From the NCBI GenBank assembly GCA_965277405.1, contig OZ255726.1, positions 887,128-951,127 on the forward strand: DNA of 64,000 nucleotides. Direction: 5' to 3'. Position numbers and translations under genes: made by a program. The stretch is from Gammaproteobacteria bacterium. GTDB lineage: Bacteria; Pseudomonadota; Gammaproteobacteria; G965277405. Under the pieces are notes generated by a model that was given only the letters and a program-made list of their open reading frames with translations, was not told the origin of the DNA and made no database searches. Shown here piece by piece: positions 9,189 to 63,170 of this stretch (position 1 is its first letter; each line of letters opens with the position of its first letter).

Positions 9189-9351
9189 GGAAGCTCTGAT
9201 TAACTCGCTAGTGGAGCGAGGTTGCCTGCAATTGCCGCGTATGTTGTGCTATACCTTGCTTGAATACTACAATACTGCATTTTTGGGATATTCTTTGTCG
9301 GGTTGTAGTGGTTTGCATAAATTGCTTTATAAGCAACTGATTCAGAACTTC
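9189..9351 (-). mobile_element. Diverged, internally deleted copy of the MITE family (about 163 bp). The R-type terminus is on the left.
   Basis: The left end GGAAGCTCTGATTAACTCGCTAGTGGAGCGAGGTTGCCTGCAATTGC matches the R terminus of the full copies. The right end is CTGATTCAGAACTTC. The flanks are CTAG / TTTA. Confidence 0.6.
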
Positions 9352-9352
9352 T

Positions 9353-9712
9353 TTAGATGGAAAAATCAAGTTCGTCTACTGTTGGCATTGCTTTGATTAC
9401 TTCATATGATTGTACAATTCCTTGTTGAAAATATACAATTATATGCCCGTTTTTTTCTGTCGTTGCAGAATTACGCGCATCAAAAGTAAAAACATAGTCC
9501 CAACGGTTTGGTGAGAACGTATCAATCAGCAGTGGATTACCCAATACAAACCGTACTTGGTCTTGCGTCATCCCTACTTGTAAACGATCTAGCGCGGTTG
9601 TCTCAACAATAATGCCTTGCTGGACGGCCGTACGTTGTATGTATGGGTAGCAGCTAGTTAGAAAAAATCCTATGAAAACAAACAAGAATGAGTAAATTAG
9701 AATGATTCGCAT
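9353..9712 (-). CDS. bamE: Outer-membrane protein assembly factor BamE (SmpA/OmlA lipoprotein)
   Basis: It has a lipobox (FLTSC) and the BamE fold motifs LQVGMTQDQVRFVLGNP. It is divergent from fur, which is the conserved omlA-fur arrangement. Confidence 0.85.
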   Translation of the reverse strand: MRIILIYSFLFVFIGFFLTSCYPYIQRTAVQQGIIVETTALDRLQVGMTQDQVRFVLGNPLLIDTFSPNRWDYVFTFDARNSATTEKNGHIIVYFQQGIVQSYEVIKAMPTVDELDFSI

Positions 9713-9736
9713 AAACAGTAGTGTAGGATAAAGATT

Positions 9737-10174
9737 ATGAATGTCGATAAAATTTTACGCGCAGCAGCTCTCAAAGTCACTAAAGCAAGAAAAGATATAT
9801 ATGGTTTACTTGCACGTAGTAAATCACCGTTGCGTGCCGATGATATATACCATCAATTTAAAATAGATGGCAACCCTACAAGTTTAGCAACAATTTATCG
9901 TGTCCTCCTCCAATTAGAACAGGTAGGCCTGTTAAGTAAACATCATTTTGACTCAACTACCGCTTGGTATGAACTGGTAAGTATCAAACACCACGATCAT
10001 CTGCGCTGCCTTGATTGTGGACAATTCGTTGAGTTTTATAACGAAACAATCGAACAAAAGCAAAAAGAAGTAGCGAGGCAACTTGGTTTTACCATGGTTG
10101 ACCATACCCTGAATATTCAAGGTCATTGCCAACAAACAAATTGCGATCATAAACAGCAACAAACAGATACGTAA
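9737..10174 (+). CDS. fur: Ferric uptake regulator Fur
   Basis: A 145-aa Fur-family protein with H-rich C-terminal metal sites (HHDHLRCLDCG...HC). Confidence 0.85.
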   Translation: MNVDKILRAAALKVTKARKDIYGLLARSKSPLRADDIYHQFKIDGNPTSLATIYRVLLQLEQVGLLSKHHFDSTTAWYELVSIKHHDHLRCLDCGQFVEFYNETIEQKQKEVARQLGFTMVDHTLNIQGHCQQTNCDHKQQQTDT

Positions 10175-10176
10175 CT

Positions 10177-11097
10177 ATGATACAGCAGCGCACACTCAGA
10201 ACATCCATCAATGCAAAAGGCATTGGTTTGCATTCTGGTGTTCCAGTTATGATGAAGTTACGCCCTGCACCAGTCAACACTGGGATTATCATCATTCGCA
10301 CAGATCTGCAAGATAAACCACACATTCATGCAACGGCTACGAATGTCTGCGAAACAGTAATGTGTACTAAACTCGGCGCTAGCGGTGATACTGGCGTTAC
10401 AGTTGCAACTGTAGAGCATCTCCTCTCGGCTTTTGCAGGACTTGGAATTGACAATGCGTATGTCGATGTAAATGCTGGAGAAATCCCTATAATGGACGGC
10501 AGTTCTAGCCAGTTTGTTTTTTTAATTCAATCAGCAGGAATACAGGAACAGCAAGAAAATCGTACTTTTGTACGCATCTTGAAAGAGATCAAGATTGACC
10601 AAGGCGATCGTTGGGTCAGTCTTAAGCCATTTGAAGGGTTTCTCTTAAAGTTTTCTATTGGCTTTGATCACCCTTTTTTTGCGAACAAAACATTATCCCA
10701 AGTATTCAATTTTTCTAGCACTTCGTACCTGCGTGAATGTATGCGTTCCAGAACATTTGGCTTTCAAAAAGATATTGACTATTTAAAATCAAAAAAACTT
10801 GCAATGGGTGGCAGTGAAAAAAATGCCATCGTTATCGGTGATAAAGGTGTAATAAACCCAAAAGGGCTGCGCCGTAACAACGAACTGATAATGCATAAAA
10901 TTCTAGATGCTATTGGTGACTTATATCTGCTTGGCCACTTTATCATTGGCAAATTTGAAGGGTTTAAATCAGGTCATGCCTTAAACAATTTATTACTACG
11001 AAAACTACTTGAATCTCCTGACAGTTGGGAGTTTTATCAACCTCCGCCAAACACTGCAATGCCAAGTTACTTTGCTAAAACAGAAGAAACCGAATAA
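10177..11097 (+). CDS. lpxC: UDP-3-O-acyl-N-acetylglucosamine deacetylase LpxC
   Basis: The N-terminus MIQQRTLRTSINAKGIGLHSG is LpxC-like, and the protein is 306 aa. Confidence 0.9.
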   Translation: MIQQRTLRTSINAKGIGLHSGVPVMMKLRPAPVNTGIIIIRTDLQDKPHIHATATNVCETVMCTKLGASGDTGVTVATVEHLLSAFAGLGIDNAYVDVNAGEIPIMDGSSSQFVFLIQSAGIQEQQENRTFVRILKEIKIDQGDRWVSLKPFEGFLLKFSIGFDHPFFANKTLSQVFNFSSTSYLRECMRSRTFGFQKDIDYLKSKKLAMGGSEKNAIVIGDKGVINPKGLRRNNELIMHKILDAIGDLYLLGHFIIGKFEGFKSGHALNNLLLRKLLESPDSWEFYQPPPNTAMPSYFAKTEETE

Positions 11098-14364: not shown

Positions 14365-14647
14365 TGAAGCTCTGATTAATTCCATGATGGGCGAGACGGA
14401 GAAAAAACGCTGATGATAACTAGACGCAGCACTTGATAATACTGGTGGTATTATCAAGTGCTGCAACGACGTTAGCGCAGCGTTTTTTCCCGTCCTTCTG
14501 TTGAATATACAACGGTTTGATGGTAGCGGTACTTGCTGTGTTGCATCCCTTGGCGTATATGCTATGGCATGCGCCTGCGGAATGCGCCTTGCAATCATCA
14601 GCAATTGCCATCAAACTCGCCCCATCAGCGACTTAATCAGAGCTTCC
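14365..14647 (+). mobile_element. MITE copy 1 (283 bp) with a perfect 4-bp TSD TTAG
   Basis: About 30-bp TIRs (TGAAGCTCTGATTAATTCCATGATGGGCGAG ... CTCGCCCCATCAGCGACTTAATCAGAGCTTCC). TTAG occurs at 14361-14364 and 14648-14651. It is about 90-95% identical to copies 2-6. Confidence 0.85.
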
Positions 14648-14960
14648 TTAGGCTATGATACTAGTAACTAGGAGCATTATTTCAAGTAATCAGAACTGCT
14701 TTGGCGAGGAATTGCTAATTATGATACTGATGTGTTGCTATTGCTATAAAAGTGTTAGCATGCTGTATTGTGAGAGTGGGCACAGTAACATTCACAATCC
14801 ATCAATAAATAAGACGAAAGTTTTTTGATGAACTGTGATAGATTGCTCACTGTTAGTCGTCGTAGATAATATAAGTATGGGCTATGCGCAGGCTTGTGGG
14901 TGTTTCTACCTGAGTTATTCCCACAAACAGTTTTAGAAAATTTTACGATTCATTATATTT

Positions 14961-16313
14961 ATGTACCAAAGAAAACCAATGTCCTTTGCCAATAATATGC
15001 GTATCAACAAGCTGTGTATTCAAACGATTATTGCGTTGACGGTGATGGTGTTTGGGCATGGAGTTTATGCGGAAGATAATGCCATCACAATTCAAATTTC
15101 TAAAGGCATTGTCGCACCAGTTACTATGGCAATTTCTCCATTTTTTCGTGCTGCAGGCATTGATGCGAATATTAATGTGGTTGATGTCATCAGGCAAGAT
15201 ATGCGCTTAAGTGGCGAGATTGTGGTATTGCCAGCGAATAAGTATTTAAGTTTGCCAAGCCGCGCTGATGAAGTGTTTTGGAGCGATTGGGAGAATATTG
15301 ATGCAGAGTATTTATTGATTGGTCGTGTCCGCAAAGACGGAGCCAACCATCGCGTAGAATATGAATTATTCGATGTTTTTGGTCGGCGTACAATCGGCGA
15401 CGAGTATTTAATTTTTACCAAAAAAAATGTTCGGTCGGTCGGTCATTTGATTTCTGATTATATCTATAAAGAAATCACTGGGCTACCAGGAGTGTATTCA
15501 ACAAAATTGGCATATGTGCTAATTGATGGGAAACGAGAGACTCACCCAACATTCCTTTTGCAGATTTCCGACTATGACGGCAAACGTGCCCAGACTATTT
15601 TAAAATCAAAACAGCCAATTATTTCGCCAACGTGGGCTCCCAATGGCTATGACATTGCGTATGTGTCGTATGAGCGCGGTCAGTCAAATATTTTTAGCCA
15701 AAACGTGCGCACAGGAAAGCGGCAGATCATTACTTGGTTTAAAGGCTTGAATAGTTCTCCAGCATGGTCGCCAGATGGCAAAAAACTTGCAATTGTGCTG
15801 TCCCGTGGTGCCAATGCAGATATTTATTTATATACCTTTGCCAACAAAAAATTTACCCGATTGACGAAGCATCTGGGGATTGATACGGAGCCTAGTTGGT
15901 CGGCAGATAGCAACACCTTGTTGTTTACCTCAGAACGTGCTGGCGGATCACCGCAGATTTTTAAATTGAATTTAACGAATAAAACTATTCACCAAATAAC
16001 AAGCGAGGGTCAGTATGCAACCCATGCGCGCTACAGCAATGGCGGTCGTGCCATTGTATATATTAAGAAGATTGGCAATGTGTATAAATTAGTCCACCAT
16101 AATTTAGCTACACGAGAAATAAAGCCGCTTGGCAATAGCCGCGATTATGATGAATCACCAAGCGTTTCTCCAAATGGCAATAGAGTAATATTCTCAACAA
16201 AAATAAACGGGCGTAGTGTGTTAAAGATAGTCTCAGTAGACGGCACTGTTGAACATACACTGCCGTTTAAGAAAGGCGAAGTGCTTGACCCAGCTTGGTC
16301 TGGTTATCGATAA
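14961..16313 (+). CDS. tolB: Tol-Pal system beta-propeller protein TolB. The start is uncertain; an alternative ATG at 14997 gives a clean signal peptide.
   Basis: The signal peptide MRINKLCIQTIIALTVMVFGHGVYA is followed by the TolB N-domain and WD40-like repeats (SPAWSPDGKKLAIV). There is no tolQRA upstream and no pal downstream. Confidence 0.85.
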   Translation: MYQRKPMSFANNMRINKLCIQTIIALTVMVFGHGVYAEDNAITIQISKGIVAPVTMAISPFFRAAGIDANINVVDVIRQDMRLSGEIVVLPANKYLSLPSRADEVFWSDWENIDAEYLLIGRVRKDGANHRVEYELFDVFGRRTIGDEYLIFTKKNVRSVGHLISDYIYKEITGLPGVYSTKLAYVLIDGKRETHPTFLLQISDYDGKRAQTILKSKQPIISPTWAPNGYDIAYVSYERGQSNIFSQNVRTGKRQIITWFKGLNSSPAWSPDGKKLAIVLSRGANADIYLYTFANKKFTRLTKHLGIDTEPSWSADSNTLLFTSERAGGSPQIFKLNLTNKTIHQITSEGQYATHARYSNGGRAIVYIKKIGNVYKLVHHNLATREIKPLGNSRDYDESPSVSPNGNRVIFSTKINGRSVLKIVSVDGTVEHTLPFKKGEVLDPAWSGYR

Positions 16314-16340
16314 TAACTAGCGTGCAATACGCAAATAATA

Positions 16341-17492
16341 ATGACCGCAACACTGCGCCCAGTCCGCTTTATCACCATTGGTTCTGCGATGATAGATATC
16401 ATTGCGTTGATTGGTAAAGATGACATAGAAAAAGTATCGTTTACTAACGCAATAACAGCTTTTCTATTGGTTGAACCAGGCCGAAAAATAGAAGCAAAAA
16501 AAATATTTACCAATGTCGGGGGTGGTGCAATCAATACCGCTGTGTCAATGAAACGCCTCGGTGGTGATGGTGCGGCAATGGTGCGGATTGGTGATGATTT
16601 TGATGGCAAAAAAATAACGCAATTCCTAGAAAAACATGACATTGCTACACGGCTCATAATCACTGACGCAGCGCAGCAAACAGGCAGCGCTGTGTTGATT
16701 ACAGCGCATGATTATAATAATGCTATCTATACCTATCGCGGTGCCAACACTGCATTTATTGCAGCAGAATTTGCCGCTAAAATTTTTTTAGATGTTGATG
16801 TGCTACATATTTGTCCGTTGAGTGGTCGATCTGCAAACCACCTACCAAGAATCATTCAGCAAGCGCGAGCGCAGCCAAATGTTTTTATTTCAGTGAATCC
16901 TGGAATTCGCCAAATGACAGCGCATGCTACTAAACTTTTTTCTCTTGTCGCTCAAATCAATCTGCTCGCGTGTAACGCGGTAGAGGCTGGAGTTTTAGCG
17001 CAGGCCATTGCTCATTTTCTGCATGAAGATATTAGCGAACACAGCATAAAAAAACGCCATGTTGATATCAATACAGCATGCAAACTTTTGCATACAGGCG
17101 CCCCAGTCGGCACAACTGGCCAGACTATTGATGTGCTATGGTTGATGCAAGTGCTCCTCAAGCAAGGACTTGAATATGGCTTGATAACCGATGGCAGCAA
17201 CGGCGCGTATTTATACAGCAAAAGCGGTATTTGGTATCAACCATCGCTGCTGAGTAAGGGGATTCGCGGCACAGCAGGGGCGGGGGATGCGTATATATCC
17301 ACAGTAGTATATTTATTGAACACAGGGCTAGCACCTGAGTTAGTTGTTGCGTATGCTGCCATGAATGCGGTCAATGTTATCGAACATTTAGACACTCACT
17401 CTGGATTATCGTCGCTAGCAAACTTGCAATTACAACGTGATGAAAACACTCCATCGCCGCAGTTTATTTGTTTTACGCATACACCGGGTTAA
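16341..17492 (+). CDS. PfkB-family carbohydrate/nucleoside kinase (ribokinase-like)
   Basis: The N-terminal GG motif (NVGGGAINTA) and the C-terminal PfkB signature GTAGAGDAY are both present. Confidence 0.7.
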   Translation: MTATLRPVRFITIGSAMIDIIALIGKDDIEKVSFTNAITAFLLVEPGRKIEAKKIFTNVGGGAINTAVSMKRLGGDGAAMVRIGDDFDGKKITQFLEKHDIATRLIITDAAQQTGSAVLITAHDYNNAIYTYRGANTAFIAAEFAAKIFLDVDVLHICPLSGRSANHLPRIIQQARAQPNVFISVNPGIRQMTAHATKLFSLVAQINLLACNAVEAGVLAQAIAHFLHEDISEHSIKKRHVDINTACKLLHTGAPVGTTGQTIDVLWLMQVLLKQGLEYGLITDGSNGAYLYSKSGIWYQPSLLSKGIRGTAGAGDAYISTVVYLLNTGLAPELVVAYAAMNAVNVIEHLDTHSGLSSLANLQLQRDENTPSPQFICFTHTPG

Positions 17493-17496
17493 CGCT

Positions 17497-18792
17497 ATGA
17501 CTACTGAATTGTTGTCGCCTGCAGGCACCCTCAAGCATTTGCAATATGCCATAGCATATGGCGCAGATGCAGTATATGCTGGGCAGCCACGATATAGTTT
17601 ACGCGTACGCAATAACTCATTTAATAAAATTGAACATATCAAAACAGGTATAGCAACCGCGCATGCCCAAGGAAAGTTATTTTTTTTAGCGAGCAATATT
17701 GCCGCGCATAATGACAAAGTTAAAACCTATATTCGCGACTTAGAGCCAATCATTGCCTGTCGTCCAGATGCGCTGATTATGTCTGATCCAGGGCTTATTA
17801 TGCTGGTTCGTGAACGCTGGCCAGAGCAAGTCATCCATCTGTCAGTACAAAGCAATGTTGTCAATTACCAAGCGGTGACGTTCTGGCAGAACATCGGCGT
17901 GCAGCGCATTATTTTATCCCGTGAGTTATCGCTAGATGAGATTCGTGAAATCCGCCAACTATGCCCAGATATTGAATTAGAAGTATTTGTCCACGGTGCG
18001 CTGTGCATGGCGTATTCTGGTCGCTGCTTGTTGTCTGGATATTTTAATCATCGCGATGCAAATCAAGGCGCGTGCACCAATGCATGCCGTTGGAAATACG
18101 ATACCTTTGCGACAAATAAAACAGCAAGTGGCGATTACGTGAAACAGCACGACCCCGTCGCTATCGAAGAAAAAACGCGTCCTGGTGAATACATGATTGC
18201 TGACGAAGATGAACACGGCACGTATATTATGAATTCAAAAGACCTGCGTGCCATCGAGCATGTCCACCAACTATGCCGCATTGGTATAAATTCACTCAAA
18301 ATTGAAGGGCGGACAAAGTCGTATTATTATGTAGCAAGAACCGCACAATTATACCGACGAGCAATCCACGCCGCTGAACAAGGTATCCCGTTCGACCCAC
18401 AATGGCTATTCGAATTAGACAAACTGGCGAATCGTGGTTATACAGAAGGTTTTTACCGCAGGCACACCCCAGCAGATGAGTTGCAAAACTACGAACAGGG
18501 TAGTTCGCAAAACTTTAACCAGCAATTTGTTGGTGAAATTACTGATGTCATGGAAAAAGAATTGACGATTGAAGTCAAAAATAAGTTTGTTGTCGGCGAC
18601 ACATTAGAAGTCATCTCACCTACAGGCAATCATCAATTTGTGCTGGATTCAATGCGCGATAAAAACGGCATCGCCACAACTGCAGCGCTCGGCTCTGGGC
18701 ATTTGGTGACTATTCCAAATCCAACAGGAATTGCTGATATACAATATGGCTTATTAGCGTGTAATCGTAACAAAATGGAACAGGCAGCATGA
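17497..18792 (+). CDS. U32-family peptidase-like protein (YegQ/TrhP-type tRNA or rRNA hydroxylation factor)
   Basis: It has the U32 motifs (E-x-F-x-H-G-A-L-C-x-A-Y-S-G-R-C) and is about 430 aa from the ATG at 17497. The track start at 17437 is upstream. Confidence 0.8.
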   Translation: MTTELLSPAGTLKHLQYAIAYGADAVYAGQPRYSLRVRNNSFNKIEHIKTGIATAHAQGKLFFLASNIAAHNDKVKTYIRDLEPIIACRPDALIMSDPGLIMLVRERWPEQVIHLSVQSNVVNYQAVTFWQNIGVQRIILSRELSLDEIREIRQLCPDIELEVFVHGALCMAYSGRCLLSGYFNHRDANQGACTNACRWKYDTFATNKTASGDYVKQHDPVAIEEKTRPGEYMIADEDEHGTYIMNSKDLRAIEHVHQLCRIGINSLKIEGRTKSYYYVARTAQLYRRAIHAAEQGIPFDPQWLFELDKLANRGYTEGFYRRHTPADELQNYEQGSSQNFNQQFVGEITDVMEKELTIEVKNKFVVGDTLEVISPTGNHQFVLDSMRDKNGIATTAALGSGHLVTIPNPTGIADIQYGLLACNRNKMEQAA

Positions 18793-19160
18793 GCAACAGA
18801 CAACAACCAACTCCGCGCAGTGAGCGCCGCGAAAAAATCGCCAGTTTGATACAAAAAACACTCGCTCCATTGCTGCAACAATCGCATATTATTGGCATTG
18901 AATTGTTGAGTATTCATTATGTGCGGATGAATAAAGATTTAAGCATTGCAACTGTATATGTCGATAGTTTTGATCTCGATAAAGATATGGCAGTGGTATG
19001 TAAGCAATTGAACGCACACAGTTATGTGTTGCGCCGACAATTAGCGACTCGCGTGGCGCTAAGACGCATACCTGAACTACGCTTTGCTATTGACGCATCG
19101 CTGACGCGTGGTAATCGAATTGAGAGTATTATCGACAACTACCAAGCGTTGCAAGAGTGA
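18789..19160 (+). CDS. rbfA: Ribosome-binding factor A
   Basis: A 123-aa RbfA-family protein, directly upstream of truB. Confidence 0.85.
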   Translation: MSNRQQPTPRSERREKIASLIQKTLAPLLQQSHIIGIELLSIHYVRMNKDLSIATVYVDSFDLDKDMAVVCKQLNAHSYVLRRQLATRVALRRIPELRFAIDASLTRGNRIESIIDNYQALQE

Positions 19161-20071
19161 ATGGCTTTATTTGTGTAGACAAACCACAAGGATGCACCTC
19201 AAGCCAAGTAGTCGTCAAAATTAAGCGCTTGTTACGCAATTTTGACCCCATCCAACACCGAAAAATAAAAGTCGGCCACACTGGGACGCTTGACCCCATG
19301 GCAACTGGCGTGTTACTAGTGGCAATTGGCAAAGCCACCGTGCTCAGTGATTTTTTTTTGCATGGCGAGAAAACCTATCGAGCGATACTGCAGCTAGGTT
19401 GCGCAACAACGACTGGAGACAGCGAGGGCGCAGTCATGCAGCGACAAATAATACCGCCGTACGATCTGCAAATACTCCAAAATATCGCGCAACAACTGCA
19501 AGGGACACAACAGCAAATTCCGCCGATGTATTCGGCCTTAAAACATAATGGCAAGCCGCTGTATGTATACGCACGAGCAGGTGAAACTATTCCTCGCAAA
19601 CCTAGACAAATCACTGTACACCATCTTGAGATACAGCCAGGGGTGAATACACACACCATAGCCATTACCGTGCATTGTTCAGGGGGAACCTATGTGCGGG
19701 CATTGGCAGAAACCATTGCGCATAATATTGGCACATGTGGTCATTTAACGGCATTGCGGCGTATTAAAAGCGGTAATATTAGTATCAAGCAAGCATATTC
19801 AATTGATTATGTCGCCAAGCAAATTGCAGCGGGAATGGTGGATGACTTGCTGATGCCGATGAATATAATTACACAATACATCCCTTGTATTAAAGCGGAT
19901 AAACACCAGTTAGCACCAATTGCAAAAGGGCAGGCGATTACCATTCCAAATAAAATATCGCATGGTAGAGTAGCGCTGATTTTGCAACCAGAGAACGAAG
20001 TGGTTGCGTTATGTGACAACAAGGCGGATGGGATTTTTCCCAAACGCCTACTTCAACCGGAATTGCTGTAA
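19157..20071 (+). CDS. truB: tRNA pseudouridine(55) synthase TruB
   Basis: The motif GHTGTLDPMATGVL is present, and the rbfA-truB-rpsO-pnp synteny is conserved. Confidence 0.9.
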   Translation: MNGFICVDKPQGCTSSQVVVKIKRLLRNFDPIQHRKIKVGHTGTLDPMATGVLLVAIGKATVLSDFFLHGEKTYRAILQLGCATTTGDSEGAVMQRQIIPPYDLQILQNIAQQLQGTQQQIPPMYSALKHNGKPLYVYARAGETIPRKPRQITVHHLEIQPGVNTHTIAITVHCSGGTYVRALAETIAHNIGTCGHLTALRRIKSGNISIKQAYSIDYVAKQIAAGMVDDLLMPMNIITQYIPCIKADKHQLAPIAKGQAITIPNKISHGRVALILQPENEVVALCDNKADGIFPKRLLQPELL

Positions 20072-20121
20072 ATATGCATGGTAATGATGGTTTTTTTGGA
20101 AAGCATATTTAGGAGATAACA

Positions 20122-20391
20122 ATGGCACTTTCGTTTGAAGAAAAACGCGAAATTGTTGAACAATACGGTAAAACCGCAACAGATACTGGCTCGTCCAAAG
20201 TGCAAATAGCTTTGCTAACTGCAGACATTAATAAACTGCAGGACCATTTTAAAAGACAAGGCAAAGATCACCATTCTCGTCGTGGACTGATTCGCAAAGT
20301 AAATCAAAGACGAAAACTACTGCAATACCTGAAAAACTCAAGCATCCAAGCGTATGGCGAAATTATCCGCGCACTTGGACTACGCCGCTAG
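20122..20391 (+). CDS. rpsO: 30S ribosomal protein S15
   Basis: An 89-aa protein matching S15, preceded by an AGGAGA SD. Confidence 0.92.
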
Positions 20392-20401
20392 GACATACAA
20401 C

Positions 20402-22501
20402 ATGACTCAAAATTCAATTAATTTTAATACCCAAACTGTCTCTTTTGCATTTGGTGACCAAACAATTTCTCTTGAAACCGGCAGAATTGCACGTCAAGCA
20501 AGCGGGGCCGTGCTGGCAACAATGGGTGGAACTGCAATATTGGCAACAACAGTTGTTTCCAAACGCGAAAGCCGTTTTGACTTTTTCCCGTTGACGGTGA
20601 ATTATCAAGAAAAAATCTATTCTGCTGGAAAAATTCCAGGTGGTTTTTTCAAACGCGAAGGACGTCCAAGCGAAAAAGAAACGTTGACATCACGGTTGAT
20701 TGACCGCCCAATTCGTCCATTGTTTCCAAGCGGATACATGCAAGAAGTGCAAGTCGTTTGTACAGTGATGTCTGCGGACAAAAACACCAATCCTGATATA
20801 TTAGCGATGATTGCCGCCTCTGCGAGTTTGTGTATTTCAGGCGCTCCTTTTCAAGGCCCGATCGGCGCTGCGCGGGTCGGTGTTGGTGGTGATGGTTCGT
20901 ATATTCTGAACCCATCATATGATGACATGGGTAAGTCATCGTTGGATATGGTCGTGGCAGGCAGCCAAGATGCAATTTTAATGGTCGAATCTGAAGCCAG
21001 CGAACTTGGCGAAGAACATATGCTTGAGGCAGTGATGTTTGCCCATGAACAAATGCAAACTGCAATAGCCGCAATACAGGAATTGGTTGTCAAAGTTGGT
21101 AACCCCTCAAGTAAATGGGAAGCGCCAGCAACAGACGCAGCATTGGTTGATGGCGTAACTGCCAAGTTTGCAGAAAAAATTGCAGCTGCATATACCACCA
21201 GCGACAAACAGCAACGTAGCGAGCAACTCGATACAATTCGCCAACAAATTCATAGCGAATTTGACACAGAAGACAGCAGCAACGCTGGTGAAATTGACTT
21301 GATTATAAAGTCAATTGAAAAGTCATCAGTGCGCCAGCGTTTGATTCGAGGCGAGCCACGGATTGACGGACGAGATTTAAAAACAGTTCGACCGATTGCC
21401 ATTGAAATTGGTGTGCTACCGAATACACACGGCAGCGCATTGTTTACCCGTGGTGAAACACAGGCAATTGTTGTCAGTACGCTCGGTCCTGTAAAAAGCG
21501 CACAAATTATTGATGCGCTTGAAGGTGAATACCGTGATGGATTTATGTTGCATTATAATTTTCCGCCATTTTGCGTTGGTGAAACAGGAATGATGGTTGG
21601 ACCCAAGCGCCGTGAGATTGGTCATGGACGGTTAGCAAGAAGAGGTATTGCTGCGGTGTTGCCACCACAAGAGCAATTTCCATATACGATTCGTGTGGTT
21701 TCTGAAATTACTGAATCGAATGGTTCAAGTTCTATGGCAAGTATTTGCGGCACCAGTCTTTCATTAATGGATGCTGGTGTGCCAATTAAAGCCGCAGTTG
21801 CTGGGGTGGCGATGGGATTAGTAAAAGAGGCTGAAGGACATGCAATTATTACCGACATCCTCGGTGATGAAGATCACTTAGGCGATATGGACTTTAAAGT
21901 TGCCGGAACTGAAAAAGGTGTGACTGCGCTGCAAATGGATATTAAAATTAGCGGAATTACTCGAGAAATTATGGAAGAAGCGTTGACACAGGCGCGTGAA
22001 GGACGCTTACATATTCTTGGTGAAATGAACAAAGTCATTACCAAATCACGGGATCAGCTTGCTGCGTCTGCGCCAACATTGCTGACATTAAAAATCAAGC
22101 AAGATAAAATTCGTGATGTTATTGGTAAAGGTGGTGCAGTAATCAGACAAATGATAGAAGATAGCGGTGCGACAATTGATATAGCTGATGACGGTATGGT
22201 GCAAGTGTATGGAGAAGGTCGTGATTCAGCAGAAGCTGCGATTCAAATGGTCAAAGACATAGTTGCAGAAGCTGAAGTAGGGCAACAAATTACAGGTACA
22301 GTCCGCTCGATTGTTGATTTTGGCGCATTCGTTAACATTCTGCCAAACACTGATGGCTTGCTGCATATTTCTGAAGTATCAAAACGACGTATCCAAAATG
22401 TCAATGAATTCTTAAAAGAAGGACAGAAAATTGAGGTAATTGTCAAAGAAGTTGACCCGCGCGGGCGTATTAAGCTCAGTTTAGTGAATATTTTTGACTA
22501 A
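20402..22501 (+). CDS. pnp: Polyribonucleotide nucleotidyltransferase (PNPase)
   Basis: It has two RNase PH domains plus KH and S1 domains and is about 700 aa. The ATG at 20402 follows the rpsO stop. The TAA stop lies inside the CTAA flank of MITE copy 2. Confidence 0.92.
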
Positions 22502-22787
22502 GGAACCTCTGATTAATTCCATGATGGGCGAGACGGAGAAAAAACGCTGATGAAACTTAAGCGCAGTGCGCAGATAATACTGGTGGTATTATCAAGTGCT
22601 GCAACGACGTTAGCGCAGCGTTTTTTTTCCGTCCTTCTATTGAATATATGATGGTTTGCCTACAAGCGGTACTTGCTGTGTTGCATCCCTTGGCGTATAT
22701 GCTACGGCATGCGCCTACGGAATGCGCCTTGCAATCATCAGCAATTGCAGGCAAACTCGCTCCATCAGCAAGTTAATCAGAGGTTCC
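22502..22787 (+). mobile_element. MITE copy 2 (286 bp), inserted exactly at the pnp stop codon
   Basis: It has both TIRs. The flanks are CTAA (22498-22501, containing the pnp TAA) and CGAA, a 1-mismatch TSD. Confidence 0.85.
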
Positions 22788-22866
22788 CGAAGCATTGCTA
22801 TGGTTCACATTGACAGGATGGAATAAACTAGCAGTCATACATAAACTCACTTATCAAAGGGCTGTA

Positions 22867-23157
22867 ATGTTGGGGGTAGTCACTTTTTTTATGAAGGAAA
22901 AACAAAAAAACAAACAATTAATTCAGCCGTTTCTGCAGCAACGGTTTGAAGAATTTTTCGCAGCACTTGGTGATGAGAAAATGCCGAGTCTGTATACAAC
23001 AGTCATGCGCCAATGTGAAATTCCTCTGATTCGCGCCGCACTCAAACATTGTAATGATAATAAATCAAAAACTGCTTGTTTGCTTTCTGTCAGCCGAGTA
23101 ACGCTGCGCAATAAAATGCATAAATACAGTATTGAAAGCAGCGCAAATAGCTCATAG
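22867..23157 (+). CDS. Fis-family DNA-binding protein (small nucleoid-associated HTH regulator). The start is uncertain (22867 or 22891).
   Basis: The C-terminus ...NKSKTACLLSVSRVTLRNKMHKYSIE matches the Fis HTH ([26 protein letters not shown]). The track ORF start at 22795 lies inside the MITE. Confidence 0.65.
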   Translation: MLGVVTFFMKEKQKNKQLIQPFLQQRFEEFFAALGDEKMPSLYTTVMRQCEIPLIRAALKHCNDNKSKTACLLSVSRVTLRNKMHKYSIESSANSS

Positions 23158-23161
23158 GCAT

Positions 23162-23207
23162 GGAAACTCTGATTAAGTCGCTCCATGATGGGAAAATCAG
23201 AGTTTGC
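23162..23207. repeat. 46-bp mini-hairpin derived from the MITE termini (GGAAACTCTGATT...AATCAGAGTTTGC)
   Basis: A 13-bp inverted repeat matches the MITE TIR core and brackets a 20-nt TIR-derived loop. It lies between fis-like and gor, immediately upstream of the gor ATG. Confidence 0.6.
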
Positions 23208-23209
23208 GT

Positions 23210-24547: not shown

Positions 24548-25431
24548 TGCGTGGTTTGTATTTACTGGCACCTGCAAAATTAAATTTATTTCTCCATGTG
24601 TTTGCACCACGTAGTGATGGCTATCATCCGTTACATACGTATTTTCAATATATTGGGTTATTCGATGAACTGTATTTTGCTATACTACCAACCACACGTT
24701 TGCAGCCACAAATAACGATAACTATGCAAGGATGTGGTACGGCAATACAAAATAATATCATCAACCAAGCTGCGCAATTGTTGTATGCCTACATTACAAC
24801 ACCCAAGCCAAATATTCACGTTGCCGTTTGCAAACATATCCCAATTGGCGCAGGGCTAGGCGGTGGTAGTAGTAACGCGGCAACGACACTCCATGCGTTA
24901 AATATGTTGTGGAAATTGCAATTGCCGCAACAACAAATACAAGAATTATCACTCGAACTTGGCGCAGACCTGCCGTTTTTTGTCAAAGGAGAAAGTGGCT
25001 TTGCTAGCGGAATTGGTGAAGTCATGACAGCGTATGCATATCCAGATTTGTATTGTGTAGTGGTTTTGAGTGGAATTCATTGCGTTACAAGTGCAGTGTT
25101 TTTGCATAAACAATTGACAACCAAAAAGCAGATGACAACAATACCGCCCGCCTATCAAGAGCTAACTATCAATGAGGTGGTTGGACTGGGAAACGATTGT
25201 ATTGACGCAGCGTTTGCTGAATATCCAAAGCTCAAACAGGTATACAGTATAATCAGCAACTATGGTCAGTTTGCAATGACTGGAACAGGCTCCACGTTTT
25301 TTGCAGTATACCAAAGCAAACAACAAGCGATGCAGCTGGCAAAGCGAATATGCGATGAGCGTGCACTCAACGCAATAGTAGTACCAAGTATTGCACGATG
25401 GCACACGTATTGGGGTGTAGCCAAGTGGTAA
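24547..25431 (+). CDS. ispE: 4-diphosphocytidyl-2-C-methyl-D-erythritol kinase IspE
   Basis: The N-terminus LLAPAKLNLFLHV...RSDGYHPL is IspE-like. The last ~21 nt overlap the tRNA-Gln gene. Confidence 0.85.
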   Translation: MRGLYLLAPAKLNLFLHVFAPRSDGYHPLHTYFQYIGLFDELYFAILPTTRLQPQITITMQGCGTAIQNNIINQAAQLLYAYITTPKPNIHVAVCKHIPIGAGLGGGSSNAATTLHALNMLWKLQLPQQQIQELSLELGADLPFFVKGESGFASGIGEVMTAYAYPDLYCVVVLSGIHCVTSAVFLHKQLTTKKQMTTIPPAYQELTINEVVGLGNDCIDAAFAEYPKLKQVYSIISNYGQFAMTGTGSTFFAVYQSKQQAMQLAKRICDERALNAIVVPSIARWHTYWGVAKW

Positions 25432-25485: not shown

Positions 25486-25601
25486 ATTTAATAATGACTG
25501 CTTCACACTGAACTCTGTATCAAAAAGGACGCGCATTGACATTGATCAAGCGCAACTCAAACTTAATAATGGCTGCTGCGCTCACTGCATAAGTTCCCTA
25601 G

Positions 25602-25886
25602 GGAAGCTCTGATTAACTCGCTGATGGAGCGAGTTTGCCTGCAATTGCTGATGATTGCAAGGCGCATTTCGCAGGCGTATGCCGTAGCATATACGCCAAG
25701 GGATGCAACACAGCAAGTACCGCTTGTAGGCAAACCATCATATATTCAATAGAAGGACGGGAAAAAACGCTGCGCTAACGTCGTTACAGCACTTGATAAT
25801 ACCACCAGTGTTATCTGCGCACTGCGTCTAGTTATCATCAGCGTTTTTTCTCCGTCTCGCCCATCATGGACTTAATCAGAGCTTCC
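25602..25886 (-). mobile_element. MITE copy 3 (285 bp), in reverse orientation
   Basis: Both TIRs are present. The flanks are CTAG / TTTG with no TSD. It is about 95% identical to the reverse complement of copy 5. Confidence 0.85.
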
Positions 25887-29015: not shown

Positions 29016-29053
29016 AATCGTTGGCTACGCGATTCACAGGGTGCTTGTCGACA

Positions 29054-45626: not shown

Positions 45627-45910
45627 GGAACCTCTGATTAAGTCCATGATGGGCGAGACGGAGAAAAAACGCTGATGATAACTAGACGCAGTGCGCAGAT
45701 AATACTGGTGGTATTATTAAGTGCTGCAACGACGTTAGCGCAGCGTTTTTTCCCGTCCTTCTGTTGAATATACAACAGTTTGATGGTAGCGGTACTTGCT
45801 GTGTTGCATCCTTTGGCGTATATGCTACGGCATACGCCTGCGGAATGCGCCTTGCAATCATCAGCAATTACCATCAAACTCGCTCCATCAGCGACTTAAT
45901 CAGAGGTCCC
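45627..45910 (+). mobile_element. MITE copy 4 (284 bp) with a perfect TSD CTAA. It is inserted between the plsC stop and the hemA start.
   Basis: CTAA occurs at 45623-45626 and 45911-45914. The right TSD contains the plsC stop (TAG on the minus strand). The hemA ATG is 11 bp from the left end. Confidence 0.88.
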
Positions 45911-46634: not shown

Positions 46635-46838
46635 AGAATCTCTGATGTAATTGCTAGTGAAACACTGTATGTGTCGCCAATTAGTTGCGGTAACATCGCC
46701 GCTACAACAGCAGGGCAAGATTTACTGTGAACGGCTGGTGTGCATGGGCTTGCCAAGGCAGCACCATTTACAGCAAACCGCCGTGCTTTTCAACCTGTAA
46801 AGTTGCCTCACACCCATCATGGGCTTAATCAGCGCTTC
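46635..46838 (-). mobile_element. Diverged older MITE copy (about 204 bp), between the yaaA stop and the plsC start
   Basis: The left end is AGAATCTCTGATGTAATTGC and the right end is CACCCATCATGGGCTTAATCAGCGCTTC, which matches the L-type TIR in reverse complement. The left flank TTAG lies directly after the plsC ATG. Confidence 0.6.
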
Positions 46839-50042: not shown

Positions 50043-50064
50043 GATAATTTAGGAGGAATACTAT

Positions 50065-50347
50065 GGAAGCTATGATTAAGTCCATGACGGGCGAGACGGA
50101 GAAAAAACGCTGATGATAACTAGACGCAGTGCGCAGATAATACTGGTGGTATTATCAAGTGCTGCAACGACGTTAGCGCAGCGTTTTTTTCCGTCCTTCT
50201 GTTGAATATATGATGGTTTGCTGCAGCGGTACTTGCTGTGTTGCATCCCTTGGCGTATATGCTACGGCATGCGCCTGCGGAATGCGCCTTGCAATCATCA
50301 GCAATTGCAGGCAAACTCGCTCCATCAGCGACTTAATCAGAGCTTCC
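50065..50347 (+). mobile_element. MITE copy 5 (283 bp) with a perfect TSD CTAT. It is inserted between the SD and start codon of the ATP-grasp gene.
   Basis: CTAT occurs at 50061-50064 and 50348-50351. The AGGAGG SD at 50051-50056 is now separated from the ATG (50350) by the element. Confidence 0.9.
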
Positions 50348-50349
50348 CT

Positions 50350-51615
50350 ATGGGCCTTACATTAGGGTTGGTCTGTCAGCGCAATAACAACGTGCCGTTC
50401 CTATTTGAAGCAGCGGCAGCCAATCGATGTGGTTTAGTACTTATTCACGCACCCGGTGAATCTCCCCCGACGCATATGCCAGCTGTTGTCCACACGTTGG
50501 AGCTCGACGTATTTGCTCATCCACAAGCCGCGCTCTCACAGCTTGAGGCTGAAAAAATCGGACTAGATGGCATATTAACCTGCCGTGAAGAGGCTGTGCC
50601 CTGGACTGCCTTAGCAGCCCAACGCCTCAAACTACCTGGACTCAACCCCGATGCGGCACTCATCACCCGCGATAAAGCACAGATGAGAAAAGCTTTTGCA
50701 GTGGCGGGGTTAAATGTTCCAAGCTATACCTCCCTGTCAGCAGACGCCCCAGTAACACTATCCGCTAGCATGTCATACCCGCTAGTCGTCAAACCCACAG
50801 GTGGCTACGCAAGCCAAGGTGTCATTCGCGTTGATAAAGCGAGTGATCTGAAAAATACAGTAGCTAAAGTGCGAGCAATCAATGCCAATGACCTCGACGC
50901 TTTCGCCACCACTACCAGCGGAATCAATTGGGGCGCTGTTATCGTTGAAGAGTATATCGACGGCCCCGAATATGCAGTAGAGGTGTTTGCAACCGAAGGG
51001 CGGGTACATGTACTCTCCATTGGTTACAAAGGCGAGCCCAAGGGTCCTTACTTTGAGGAGACAGTTTACCTCGCGCCACCACACCTCGCGCCAGCTACAC
51101 ATAAGGCAATTGTGGAGCAAGCAATTGGCGGCATGGAATCTTTAGGCCTTACTGACGGCCCAGGCCACTGCGAGTTAAGACTGCAAAATAGCACGAAACC
51201 CTATCTGCTTGAGATTGGAGCAAGGATCGGCGGGTCTGGGGTAAGCCAATTTATAGTACAGGAAAGTTCAGGAATTGATTATGCTGGCCTACAGTTCCGC
51301 CAGTCCGCCAAGTCCTCCCTTCCCGAACTTCCTGACATAGCGACGCCAATCGCGACTGCAGGAAACTGGATTATCCCACTCGGTGGTCATGGAAAATTGG
51401 TTGATATTGCAGGTCTACAAGTGGTTCATGAGCATCCAGAAACCAAGCGCGTGCTAACCTTCCTCGAACCTGGCACCGCTGTGCAACCCTATCCAATTTT
51501 CAGTGGGTATCCAGGTTTCGTGTTATCACGCCACACCGACTGGCAGTCTGGTATAGACTATCATCGCTGGCTCAGCCAAAAACTCCGTACACATTGGGTG
51601 GAGGTAGAAACTTAA
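50350..51615 (+). CDS. ATP-grasp domain protein (carboxylate-amine / L-amino-acid ligase-like)
   Basis: ATP-grasp motifs (PLVVKPTGGYASQGV...EEYIDGPEYAVE...ELRL...LLEIGARIGG). The start at 50350 is reconstructed from the pre-insertion site. The track ORF start at 50218 lies inside the MITE. Confidence 0.75.
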   Translation: MGLTLGLVCQRNNNVPFLFEAAAANRCGLVLIHAPGESPPTHMPAVVHTLELDVFAHPQAALSQLEAEKIGLDGILTCREEAVPWTALAAQRLKLPGLNPDAALITRDKAQMRKAFAVAGLNVPSYTSLSADAPVTLSASMSYPLVVKPTGGYASQGVIRVDKASDLKNTVAKVRAINANDLDAFATTTSGINWGAVIVEEYIDGPEYAVEVFATEGRVHVLSIGYKGEPKGPYFEETVYLAPPHLAPATHKAIVEQAIGGMESLGLTDGPGHCELRLQNSTKPYLLEIGARIGGSGVSQFIVQESSGIDYAGLQFRQSAKSSLPELPDIATPIATAGNWIIPLGGHGKLVDIAGLQVVHEHPETKRVLTFLEPGTAVQPYPIFSGYPGFVLSRHTDWQSGIDYHRWLSQKLRTHWVEVET

Positions 51616-51984: not shown

Positions 51985-52730
51985 TTAATGAACCTCTGAT
52001 TTAAAATGTTTACATGAATATCGCTGTGCTTGGACAGCTGTCATTGCGCTGGTCGCTATAATATCGTCAATACTGCAACCACGCGAGAGCTCATTCACTG
52101 GTTTGTTTGACCCTTGTAAAAAGGTCCAATCGCAGTCCCTCCGCCCATTCGCCCATTCGCCCATTAGTTGCGCAATTGTATCGCCACTATTCGCAACCTC
52201 TAGCGCTGGAAATATTAAAACATTGGCGCTGCATTGGCTGATTATTAACCAACCACAACCAATCACCATCAACAACCGCGTGCTATTGTGCCACGCTGGT
52301 ATGAATATGCAGTATATTTTTGCTTGTAAACTGTCGCAGCCATGAGTTTTGTGATCCCCAGCAATGGCACATATGCATGCGTCGCCGGGTAATTGCATGC
52401 TGCATGCAACAGATATTGTTCTTGTGTATCAATATAATCTTCTATAAACGGCGGATACCACAGCGGTAGTGGGTCGTAGCACGTAGTAAGCTGTTCAAGG
52501 TATGCGCTGCACCAATGCTGCCGTACATTTGTTTGCTTCCTTTTTACAGCACTTTGATAAACGCTTCTTGTATTGTCATTTGTATCATATACCGCTCCTG
52601 CTAAATAATTTCTCAGTAACGACCTATGGTCAATCAAGATAATGCGAGATTGAATAGCAACCGCGCAGCAACTGTACTGAATTTTGCACCATGCAGACAC
52701 ATCCAACAATAATTGCTGCGTAACTATCAC
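51985..52730 (-). pseudogene. Cys-rich hypothetical reading frame split over two overlapping ORFs (52269-52730 and 51985-52398). It is possibly a frameshifted remnant.
   Basis: The two ORFs lie in different frames and overlap by 130 nt. I recognise no family, and a (CGCCCATT)x3 repeat lies at 52142-52165. Confidence 0.25.
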
Positions 52731-52882: not shown

Positions 52883-53026
52883 GGAACCTCTGATTAAGTC
52901 CATAATGGGCGAAACGGAGCAAAAACGACGTGAGCACAGCGTTTTTCCTGTTCCTCTGTTGCATATACTGTTCAATATACAACGGTTTGGAGCAATTGCT
53001 GCATCAGCGCCTTAATTAGGACTTCC
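52883..53026 (+). mobile_element. Internally deleted MITE derivative (144 bp) retaining both termini
   Basis: The left end is GGAACCTCTGATTAAGTCCATAATGGGCGAAACGGAGCAAAAACG and the right end is ...GCGCCTTAATTAGGACTTCC. The flanks are CTAG / TTAA. Confidence 0.7.
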
Positions 53027-55002: not shown

Positions 55003-55294
55003 GGGATCTCTGATGAACTAGCTGACGGAATGAGTTTGCCTGCAATTGCTGATGATTACAAGGCGTAGAGCGCATGACCTAGCTATACGCCAAGGGATGC
55101 AATACAGCAAGCGTAAGCAATTGCCGCAAACCAAAAGTGTATTCAACACAACGACGGAGAAAAAACGCTGTGCTACCGTCGTTGCAGCACTTGGCAATAC
55201 CCACAGGACCCACCAATATTATCTGCGCACTGCGCTTAAGTTTCATCAAGCGTTTTTCTCCGTCTCGTCCAGCATGGACTGAATCAGAGCTTCC
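55003..55294 (-). mobile_element. MITE copy 6 (292 bp), in reverse orientation, between the monooxygenase and ureohydrolase genes
   Basis: Both TIRs are present (GGGATCTCTGATGAA... / ...GACTGAATCAGAGCTTCC). The flanks are CTAG / TTTA with no TSD. Confidence 0.82.
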
Positions 55295-61213: not shown

Positions 61214-61264
61214 GTATCCCCGCACAATGAAAAATGCAACATCAGGAATGGTTGCTTATCTTTA

Positions 61265-61302
61265 ACAACGAGGATATGCGCTAACAACGAGGATATGCGC
61301 TA
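61265..61302. repeat. 19-bp x2 perfect tandem duplication (ACAACGAGGATATGCGCTA)
   Basis: Read directly from the sequence, in the intergenic region upstream of the second SBP gene. Confidence 0.85.
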
Positions 61303-61510
61303 AGCATAAAATTCCACATTCTCCAGCAAGGACTCCTACTGCGGCTGTAGCCCTTAAGATCTGCACCAGTTGAGAACACCTATCCGGCAACAATAACAAC
61401 CTTTAATTAGAGGTTGTCAAGCAACAATTATTGCGAGTTTTCTTCTTGTAACTCCTCTAATTTTAGAGGGGATATCATGATGCCGAAAAAATAAAACATC
61501 TATGTAAATT

Positions 61511-61563
61511 GTGATATAATGTAAACTAAGTGTGTTGGATGTACTGGATGCATAGATGCATCC
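61511..61563 (+). promoter_or_regulatory. Candidate sigma70 promoter with an extended -10 (TGaTATAAT at 61512-61520), followed by a palindromic operator-like site GGATGCAT-AG-ATGCATCC (61546-61563) and an extra GGATG half-site
   Basis: TATAAT lies 67 nt upstream of the ATG at 61587. An 8-bp perfect inverted repeat lies between the -10 and the SD AAGGAG (61575-61580). Confidence 0.45.
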
Positions 61564-61586
61564 AAACGAACAACAAGGAGAAAAAT

Positions 61587-63170
61587 ATGACCAAAATGCT
61601 TAAGCAATCTCTGATTACGTCGATAATTAGCAAGACGGGGCAACAAGATGATAATAATAGCCGCAGTACGCAGACAATACTGCTGGGTATTATCGAGTAC
61701 TTTAACGACCTTCGCGCAGCGCTGTTTGCCGCCGATGTGTTGAAGATACTGTTGGTTTACGGTACATGTTGTGTTACTCGCTTGGCGGATATGCTCAGGT
61801 CTGCGGTTTGCGCCTTGCAATCATCAGCAATTGCCATCAAGCTCGCCAATCAGCGCCTTAATCAGAGCTTCCTTAGAATACTAGCTATTTCTGCCACAGT
61901 ATTTGTCACATTGCCGGTTTTGGCAAAGGACACTCCTGTTACTTGGTGGTATGAACGCGCCACCCCTGAGCAACAAGCTGCACTGTCGGAACTGATGATT
62001 GATAAATTCAATGCTGCTGACAATGGCAACACTCTCACAATCGACTACCGTGGCAACGAATTGGATAAGCAGCTGCGGATTGCACTTTTATCAGGAACTG
62101 GTCCGGATGTAGTCAATACACCTGGTCCGTCTTTCGTGGCAACAATGGCACGCGCTGGGCAATTGCTGGCACTCGATGATATCGCTGTTAAAAAAGGCTG
62201 GAACGACCGAATCCTGCCATTCTTCATGGATTTGGGTCGGTTCGATGGCCATCTGTATGCGCTGCCAAAAACCTATGAAACACTTGGATTGTTCTACAAC
62301 AAAAAGGTCATGGCAGAGAATGGCTGGGCGGTACCTACAACTCTTGCAGAACTGACGACAGTTGCCGATGCAATGCTGTCTAAAAACATTATCCCATTTG
62401 GGTCTGGCAACTCGGACTGGCGTCCAGCCAACGAATTTCAGGTATCAATTGCTCTCAACTCCATCGCTGGTCCAGACAACATGCAAAAAGCGCTAACAGG
62501 TGAGTTGCCGTGGACGGCAGAACCTTTTGCCAAAGCCATCAATACACTAGATAGCTGGTGGAAAAAAGGCTATTTTGGACCTGACTACTTCTCACTCACC
62601 GGTGATCAGGTCATGGCTAACCTGGCTAATGGTTCTGCTGCGATGGTGCCAACCGGCACATGGAACTTCCAACTAGTCCCAGAATATTTTGGCGATCAAC
62701 TTGACAACATTGGTTTTGTAGGTTTTCCCAGCGGCGAAGGAGTGGCATACCCAATATACGCACTTGGCATTGGCTCCACACTCTCTATCGCGGCAAAAGC
62801 CAACAACCCTGAAGGTGCTGCCAACGTCATTGATTTTATCTTTAGTAAAGGTTTCTATCAGGACATGAACAGTGTTTGGCAAGGTGAGTGGAACATGCCG
62901 CTGCGTGACCTCAGCAACGTAAAACTGAGCGAAGATATCATCCCGCTGTATACGGAATCTATGGCTGCCTTGGCTGAATCCGTGAATCAAAGTCAATACG
63001 GTTACACTACTTGGACGTTCTTCCCTCCTGCAAGCAACTCTTACATTGTGAGTGGCATCGAGCAAGTTTGGCTGGATGATATTACTACCGAAGAATTCCT
63101 CGCAGAACTTGATGATATTTTCAAGCAGGAATTGGCTGAAGGCAAAGTCGCGGATATCCCTGCGCGTTAA
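61587..63170 (+). CDS. Periplasmic substrate-binding protein (SBP family 1) of a CUT1-type ABC importer. A MITE is inserted in frame inside its signal-peptide coding region.
   Basis: An SBP_bac_1-like mature domain is present. The ATG at 61587 follows an SD. Codons 1-5 (MTKML) are followed by a 91-codon MITE-derived insertion and then RILAISATVFVTLPVLA|KDTP. The frame stays open through the element. Confidence 0.75.
   Translation: MTKMLKQSLITSIISKTGQQDDNNSRSTQTILLGIIEYFNDLRAALFAADVLKILLVYGTCCVTRLADMLRSAVCALQSSAIAIKLANQRLNQSFLRILAISATVFVTLPVLAKDTPVTWWYERATPEQQAALSELMIDKFNAADNGNTLTIDYRGNELDKQLRIALLSGTGPDVVNTPGPSFVATMARAGQLLALDDIAVKKGWNDRILPFFMDLGRFDGHLYALPKTYETLGLFYNKKVMAENGWAVPTTLAELTTVADAMLSKNIIPFGSGNSDWRPANEFQVSIALNSIAGPDNMQKALTGELPWTAEPFAKAINTLDSWWKKGYFGPDYFSLTGDQVMANLANGSAAMVPTGTWNFQLVPEYFGDQLDNIGFVGFPSGEGVAYPIYALGIGSTLSIAAKANNPEGAANVIDFIFSKGFYQDMNSVWQGEWNMPLRDLSNVKLSEDIIPLYTESMAALAESVNQSQYGYTTWTFFPPASNSYIVSGIEQVWLDDITTEEFLAELDDIFKQELAEGKVADIPAR
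61604..61872 (+). mobile_element. Diverged MITE copy (269 bp) inserted in frame within the SBP gene. Flanks are TTAA / TTAG.
   Basis: The left end is GCAATCTCTGATTACGTCGATAAT...GACGGGGCAACAAGATGATAATAATAGCCGCAGTACGCAGACAATACTGCTGGGTATTATCGAGTAC. The right end ...GCGCCTTGCAATCATCAGCAATTGCCATCAAGCTCGCCAATCAGCGCCTTAATCAGAGCTTCC aligns along the full length of the family consensus. Confidence 0.8.

Follow-up and report, generated by a model that had tools for sequence, protein, structure and literature searches.

What are the short repeats scattered through this stretch of DNA, and what has moved them? [quoted passage not shown] Our analysis leads to much the same answer. With high probability, the repeats are non-autonomous MITEs moved in trans by the IS5-group DDE transposase of an insertion sequence (IS) of ~1219 bp that resides elsewhere in the genome.

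The window holds 11 elements bounded by terminal inverted repeats (TIRs), with sizes of 46 to 292 bp (Table 1), which sum to ~2.5 kb or 4% of its length, in keeping with the earlier estimate of about 4-5%. Blastn of the copy at 14365-14647 against the window recovered 22503-22787 (89%), 25602-25885 (91%, minus strand), 45628-45905 (95%) and 50066-50347 (93%), followed at lower identity by 55008-55293 (75%, minus strand) and 61606-61872 (76%). At 52884-53026 the match was split, and at 9189, 23162 and 46813 it covered an end only; a repeat search of the window returned the same families. The six full-length copies proposed in the first-pass annotation were confirmed by blastn and alignment. However, the 90-95% identity claimed for all six applies to five of them, which form a tight group with 88-95% pairwise identity in the identity matrix, while the copy at 55003-55294 lies at 73-77%. 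Likewise, only one of the three supposed diverged copies (61604-61872) is such a copy, whereas those at 9189-9351 and 46635-46838 are separate short elements of the same TIR superfamily. The inventory thus consists of five copies of ~284 bp, two diverged full-length copies, one 144-bp internally deleted derivative and three short elements that share ends only, the derivative and the 46-bp element both being found as described. The left end of the MITE, GGAAGCTCTGATTAAGTCCATGATGGGCGAG, and the reverse complement of its right end, GGAAGCTCTGATTAAGTCGCTGATGGAGCGAG, agree at 28 of 31 positions in the flanked alignment, which bears out a TIR of ~30 bp, and the TIR 15-mer GGAAGCTCTGATTAA has 23 matches in the window at up to three mismatches against 1.2 expected, a number reached in none of 100 shuffles. 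A supposed TIR-like 13-mer at 51990-52002 was discarded, as it has 3 mismatches in 15 and stands at chance level. None of the elements encodes a transposase: tblastn of the IS transposase described below found no match in the window, and the open reading frames (ORFs) that overlap MITE copies are spurious read-throughs.

The direct repeats that flank the elements are best judged at sites where the element is missing. Three window copies are flanked by perfect, non-palindromic repeats, as had been noted: TTAG (14365), CTAA (45627) and CTAT (50065). Identical flanks in three of nine pairs compare with 0.66 expected on random re-pairing of left and right flanks (P = 0.02), which is a modest result, and two more MITE copies at other loci of the species have TTAG/TTAG flanks. 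Because YTAR is nearly palindromic, flank identity alone could also be read as an extension of the TIR, and the empty sites therefore matter. For the IS, the comparison is provided by a 21-kb locus (L105) on a 236-kb ENA contig, found via a 99% identical glutathione reductase, which matches the window at 99.9% (14433-22520) and 99.6% (22498-25616) and hence comes from the same species, as another strain or assembly. The sole difference over this stretch is a 1223-bp insert, CTAA plus the IS, that separates pnp from the MITE at 22502, and the junction in L105 reads TGA CTAA, GGAATCTCTGATTAAGTCCC ... GAGTCTTAATCAGAGCTTCC, CTAA, then the MITE start GGAACCTCTGATTAATTCC. The window, with a single CTAA, is thus the empty site, and the 4-bp duplication made by the IS is seen directly.

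For the MITE, an empty site was sought in more distant relatives, and was found in two related species, on contigs from TARA (L113) and JGI (L115), whose ATP-grasp homologues are 77% and 80% identical, respectively, and which both keep the EamA-ATP-grasp gene pair. The filled site at 50065 reads GGATAATTTAGGAGGAATA CTAT (283-bp MITE) CTAT GGGCCTTACATTAGGG, in the flank context GGATAATTTAGGAGGAATACTAT (MITE) CTATGGGCCTTACATTAGGG. The L115 site is GGATAATTTGGAGTAAATA CCAT GAGTTTCACATTAGGG (as a whole, GGATAATTTGGAGTAAATACCATGAGTTTCACATTAGGG) and the L113 site has a single CTAT, ATAATAATG CTAT GAGTCTTACC. One tetranucleotide when empty and two when filled is the decisive sign of a target duplication. 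Both the IS and the MITE thus duplicate a 4-bp target of the YTAR type, which is also the target duplication of IS5 in 220 experimental insertions (PMC5009759).

The intact IS lies at L105:8070-9288. It is 1219 bp long, begins GGAATCTCTGATTAAGTCCC, reads GGAAGCTCTGATTAAGACTCGC at its other end and contains one ORF of 315 amino acids, which scores 325.6 bits against the NCBIfam model NF033581 'IS5 family transposase' (cut-off 140) and carries the Pfam domains DUF772 and DDE_Tnp_1. By its IS5-type DDE transposase, its YTAR duplication and its length of ~1.2 kb with IS5-like TIRs, it is a member of the IS5 group of the IS5 family. Its outer ~17-19 nt, GGAAKCTCTGATTAAGTC, are common to the MITE, and the core of the MITE is unrelated to it; with the termini alone shared and no internal sequence from a parent IS, as type I would have, the MITE is of type II rather than a deletion derivative. 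Nine copies of the IS, all of one family and 92-97% identical to the L105 copy, occur in ~100 kb of DNA of the species (conspecific loci L105, L112 and L119-L122). Among the eight with both ends intact, five have perfect flanks (CTAA, CTAA, TTAG, TTAG and CTAG). Right after the transposase stop stands a tandem repeat, (AAAAACAGTA) x about 4 (L105:9128-9175), whose number varies between copies and so accounts for IS lengths of 1208 to 1238 bp. As for the window's own genome, an NCBI/ENA contig of 2,174,577 bp records P0362 and P0241, to which the window's glutathione reductase and ATP-grasp protein are 100% identical, together with several full-length 315-amino-acid members of the transposase cluster (e.g., P0364, 96% identical). 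The partner IS therefore very probably resides elsewhere in this genome, its DNA on the 2.17-Mb contig being deduced from the recorded transposases.

That this particular transposase mobilizes the MITE is what we infer from sequence. In the mechanism we propose, the enzyme would recognize the ~17-19 outermost nt that the inverted termini of the MITE and the IS have in common, the element would be inserted into a 4-bp YTAR-like target with a 4-bp stagger, and repair of the staggered cut would duplicate the tetranucleotide. Since YTAR contains TAA or TAG, gene ends would be natural and harmless targets, and this targeting fits the strictly intergenic positions of the elements, often at stop codons.

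Beyond this species, an exact-pattern scan for the 26-nt terminus in one genome per GTDB species found nine places only, in three metagenome-assembled genomes (MAGs) labeled Chromatiales bacterium, Gammaproteobacteria bacterium and Sedimenticolaceae bacterium. The elements there are ~275 bp long and have the same 34-nt left end, a related right part of ~115 nt and a different left hairpin. The Sedimenticolaceae MAG, which is high in GC, also has a solo 34-nt terminus (L098:2067-2100), which stands between coaX and a SPOR-like gene and lacks a second end in its vicinity. Blastn of a MITE copy against a plasmid collection gave no match, and the TIR 15-mer has 95 single matches in viral contigs, which is the chance level. 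The transposase, in turn, has relatives of 70-76% identity that are common in metagenomes. These closest relatives come from metagenomes only, apart from one protein labeled Thiolapillus sp., and the best plasmid-borne relatives among the tblastn matches listed are about 52% identical in amino acid sequence. In another organism (ENA ERZ21930204, L106-L111) a sister IS of 1172 bp is present in many copies, with 74% amino acid identity, the TIR GGAAYCTCTGATTAAG and flanks that are mostly TTAA/TTAA. This organism also has its own MITEs, 145-164 bp long, whose termini are the same (~18 nt in common) and whose cores are unrelated, and the IS clade has thus spawned different MITEs in different hosts. 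The terminal sequences of our MITE and IS were not found printed in the literature searched, and both elements appear to be undescribed, while their biology is standard for bacterial MITEs.

Several observations count against the 1219-bp IS as the mover of the MITEs, or against movement that is still going on. By blastn, the IS is identical to the left end of the MITE for 19 nt and to its right end for 15-17 nt, with nothing beyond, and the arms of the MITE are conserved over 31 nt, longer than this overlap, so that there may be a closer partner, not seen so far. Only three of the nine window copies have perfect flanking repeats, the other pairs being off by 1-3 bases; in view of the synteny breaks at element termini described below, recombination between copies may account for the mismatched tetranucleotides. 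Finally, no difference in the presence or absence of a MITE was found between the two strains compared, and current mobility is thus unsupported.

The first of these points would be met if the MITEs had been moved by a different IS5-type element, as yet unseen, with GGAAGCTCTGATTAAGTCCATGATGG-type ends that match the full ~31-nt TIR, the 1219-bp IS being only a relative. The agreement of the MITE arms at 28 of 31 positions, the conservation of positions 20-31 between the window and MAG families and a transposase cluster with 61 sequence variants in the species leave room for such a partner. However, all nine IS copies in the ~100 kb of this species have the same ends, the sister IS shows the same pattern with MITEs that share ~18 nt only, and type II MITEs as a rule share nothing more than TIRs (PMC4596501). 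We consider an unseen partner improbable, though it is the most serious of the alternatives.

A second alternative takes the repeats as a gene for a structured non-coding RNA or as a cis-regulatory RNA module (e.g., a terminator or processing element), with the terminal repeats as its closing stem. The MITE indeed has a pronounced fold, in which a closing stem formed by the termini encloses a core of ~250 bp with two long internal hairpins of ~100 nt each. Folding is strong in the window and MAG copies (z about -11 on either strand), and the same architecture is kept across window and MAG copies that are only 47-60% identical. When these copies are aligned jointly, the share of paired cells is 83.8%, and sliding the partners gives no more than 48%; both sides have changed in 22 pairs, and such two-sided changes affect 65 cells compared with 29 in shuffles. 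At the base of hairpin 2 in the window family (alignment columns ~176-188 with 271-282) there is a compensating swap of a 6-nt block, GATGGT/ACCATC versus GCCTRC/GCAGGC, the version GTTTGATGGT...ACCATCAAAC being found in copies 14365 and 45627 (e.g., 14522-14531 with 14611-14620) and the version GTTTGCCTAC/GCTGC...GCAGGCAAAC in copies 22502, 25602 and 50065. In the window family, runs of A6 and T6 border hairpin 1, as they would a bidirectional terminator.

The terminal stem is expected to co-vary, since one protein binds both ends, and co-variation in the internal hairpins may reflect templated correction, by which the arms of a palindrome can co-evolve in the absence of selection, rather than function. 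Hairpin 1 was rejected as a terminator, as it is not called by a terminator scan and its T-run is missing in the MAG family. A strand-specific selection on RNA, for which an excess of G·T over A·C cells (123 versus 54) and the slightly better folding of the plus strand in 10 of 12 copies might be cited, was rejected as evidence because the structure was derived from the plus strand of one copy, the copies are related by descent, and their orientation relative to flanking transcription is unbiased (four sense, three antisense). Moreover, Rfam returned only two tRNAs for the whole window at the gathering threshold and only noise matches for one MITE copy at E<=5, so that the repeats match no known structured-RNA family. 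With target duplications, empty sites and IS-identical termini all showing transposition, we regard an RNA gene or module as very unlikely. Spread of REP/BIME-like or ERIC-like palindromes by a RAYT-type (Y1/HUH) enzyme or by recombination would account for strictly intergenic, highly structured elements in both orientations, but is scarcely credible for elements that are flanked by direct duplications of a 4-bp target present only once at empty sites, that share their termini with an IS5-type DDE element, that at 284 bp far exceed the length of a REP unit, and that lie in a window without any RAYT, whose only transposase-like remnants are of the rve and IS5 types.

Transposition in trans by the IS5-group element thus being preferred, we can ask when it took place. 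Over the ~24 kb shared with a 99-99.9% identical strain, all five shared elements (14365, 22502, 23162, 45627/46635 and 50065) are present in both, while IS copies differ between the two strains at three of three places compared. Since the MITE copies are 5-12% apart from each other and fixed in both strains, and the IS is polymorphic, the MITE burst looks older than the current activity of the IS. The proposal of a recent trans-mobilization is therefore supported as regards its agent, given an intact IS in the species and transposases on the 2.17-Mb contig, and is not supported as regards its recency.

The positions of the IS copies hint at a habit of the IS. Copies of it stand exactly 4 bp from the end of another element, a resident MITE or IS, at L105 9288/9293, L119 3902/3907 and 5121/5126, and L121 3902/3907, and the same end-4bp-end junction occurs in the other organism (L108 2928/2933). 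Such end-YTAR-end junctions involve four of nine IS copies, whereas an element end adjoins only ~3% of YTAR sites (binomial tail ~9e-5, from a small sample that was not designed for the test). This suggests that the IS favors insertion into the 4-bp duplication beside resident ends, giving rise to end-4bp-end junctions and arrays. We know of no description of preferential insertion into a resident flanking duplication for IS5-group elements. The window and the other strain lose synteny at two places, window positions 25616 (L105:12393) and 52901 (L112:12665), both of them inside the terminus of an element. At each, the MITE of the window (25602-25616 and 52883-52901) faces an IS at the same left junction and the DNA downstream is unrelated; in the 52883 element, synteny is lost 19 nt in. 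These breaks indicate element-mediated rearrangement, and their position on elements would follow from integration of the IS into flanking duplications, if the preference is true. It would be tempting to conclude that the MITE is more than a passive hitch-hiker, its fold being under selection (as a DNA or RNA feature required in mobilization, or as an expression module at gene boundaries) and its flanking duplications serving as targets of the IS. We hold this idea to be speculative and on balance doubtful.

The window is chromosomal gammaproteobacterial DNA of ~45% G+C, with pnp, tolB, priA, acs, hemA-prfA, tRNA-Ser and tRNA-Gln, and all its elements are intergenic, often with base-exact boundaries. 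At the 22502 copy, the left tetranucleotide (22498-22501) includes the TAA stop of pnp, and at the 45627 copy the right CTAA (45911-45914) includes the TAG stop of a minus-strand acyltransferase gene. With the stop codon inside the duplicated tetranucleotide, insertion at YTAR rebuilds the stop and leaves the protein unaltered. The element at 23162 stops 2 nt ahead of the ATG of glutathione reductase. At the 50065 copy (site 50043-50352), the Shine-Dalgarno sequence and the ATG of the ATP-grasp gene are now 287 bp further apart, and public gene calls for this gene disagree (421 versus 467 amino acids) because the MITE was inserted at its start. The right CTAT together with a G restores the ATG, and behind the old Shine-Dalgarno sequence there is now a 16-codon ORF, MEAMIKSMTGETEKKR, which extends into the MITE.

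Table 1. Elements with MITE-type termini in the 64-kb window
Feature	Coordinates	Strand	Flanks (left/right)	Remarks
Full-length MITE, 283 bp	14365..14647	+	TTAG/TTAG	Between divergent OsmC-like gene and tolB
Full-length MITE, 286 bp	22502..22787	+	CTAA/CGAA	pnp TAA stop inside left CTAA
Full-length MITE, 285 bp	25602..25886	-	CTAG/TTTG	116 bp downstream of tRNA-Gln
Full-length MITE, 284 bp	45627..45910	+	CTAA/CTAA	hemA start 11 bp to left
Full-length MITE, 283 bp	50065..50347	+	CTAT/CTAT	Between AGGAGG Shine-Dalgarno sequence and ATG of ATP-grasp gene
Diverged full-length copy, 292 bp	55003..55294	-	CTAG/TTTA	73-77% identical to main group
Diverged full-length copy, 269 bp	61604..61872	+	TTAA/TTAG	69-72% identical to main group
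Internally deleted derivative, 144 bp	52883..53026	+	CTAG/TTAA	Both termini kept
Short element, 163 bp	9189..9351	-		Terminus plus ~47-75 nt of MITE right end; remainder unrelated; far end degenerate
Short element, 204 bp	46635..46838	-		TIR-like termini only (26 nt at 46813-46838); core unrelated
46-bp element, two abutting partial termini	23162..23207	.		Between Fis-type helix-turn-helix gene and glutathione reductase start

A decayed patch of other mobile DNA lies at 28308-30010 in the window, with a fragment of an rve-type integrase (28308-28712), a helix-turn-helix fragment and a fragment of an IS5-type transposase (29574-29936; NF033581 match, E 6e-11). The patch also has a short sequence in direct duplicate, gatgctgcgatac / caagcaatgc, and beyond it the GC content is low (37% in 30-32 kb). 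As a candidate for the partner IS, the IS5-like remnant at 29250-30010 was ruled out, since neither the new IS (blastn) nor its transposase (tblastn) matches anything in the window; it is a different element and, as the first-pass annotation had it, does not show termini that match those of the MITE. An IS-bearing contig from the same set of assemblies also encodes a 947-aa protein (L122:619-3462) with many Pfam matches of eukaryote-type WD40/beta-propeller domains. Either a host-associated bacterium has a eukaryote-like protein here, or the contig is mis-binned or chimeric.

Taken together, the analysis offers a clean MITE/IS pair in an uncultured, IS-rich marine gammaproteobacterium, for which termini, target, empty sites and transposase have been identified. 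It shows a route by which an element that targets YTAR lands on stop and start codons, and it marks points of rearrangement between two strains. The general knowledge of bacterial MITEs is unchanged by it, and it is of value chiefly for annotation, for the typing of strains and for an understanding of genome dynamics in this lineage.

Among known systems, the closest to the partner IS is IS5 of Escherichia coli. At 1195 bp it is nearly as long as the 1219-bp IS, both encode a single DDE transposase (that of the partner being 47% identical to InsH), and both duplicate a 4-bp target at YTAR (PMC5009759). The ends of E. coli IS5 (NC_000913) are GGAAGGTGCGAATAAG and GGAAGGTGCGAACAAGTCCC; the IS end GGAATCTCTGATTAAGTCCC agrees with GGAAGGTGCGAACAAGTCCC at 14 of 20 positions, and the partner termini start with GGAAG. 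Unlike E. coli IS5, the partner IS is accompanied by a large population of short non-autonomous elements.

These elements in turn resemble the Correia elements of Neisseria, ERIC and other intergenic MITEs, which are abundant, occur in both orientations, have TIRs, form long hairpins when transcribed, can adjoin start and stop codons and may affect expression; intergenic preference, stable hairpins and possible terminator or small RNA effects are general features of MITEs (PMC10969869). A further parallel is offered by type II MITEs whose TIRs are all that they share with IS5-family ISs, namely BrickBuilt and MITE464/PgRS of Porphyromonas gingivalis (ISPg1/3/4/9) and ATR of Neisseria (ISNme1), all of which are short and non-coding, with the termini of an IS5-family IS of the same genome and an unrelated core (PMC4596501). 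The target duplications of BrickBuilt are variable (PMC4596501), whereas that of the window MITE is a 4-bp YTAR checked by empty sites. The TIR sequence, core and host of the window MITE all differ from those of BrickBuilt, MITE464 and ATR. It also differs from the Correia elements, which duplicate TA, in its 4-bp YTAR target. Moreover, no transposase that matches the Correia elements is known to us, whereas for the window MITE a partner IS has been identified.

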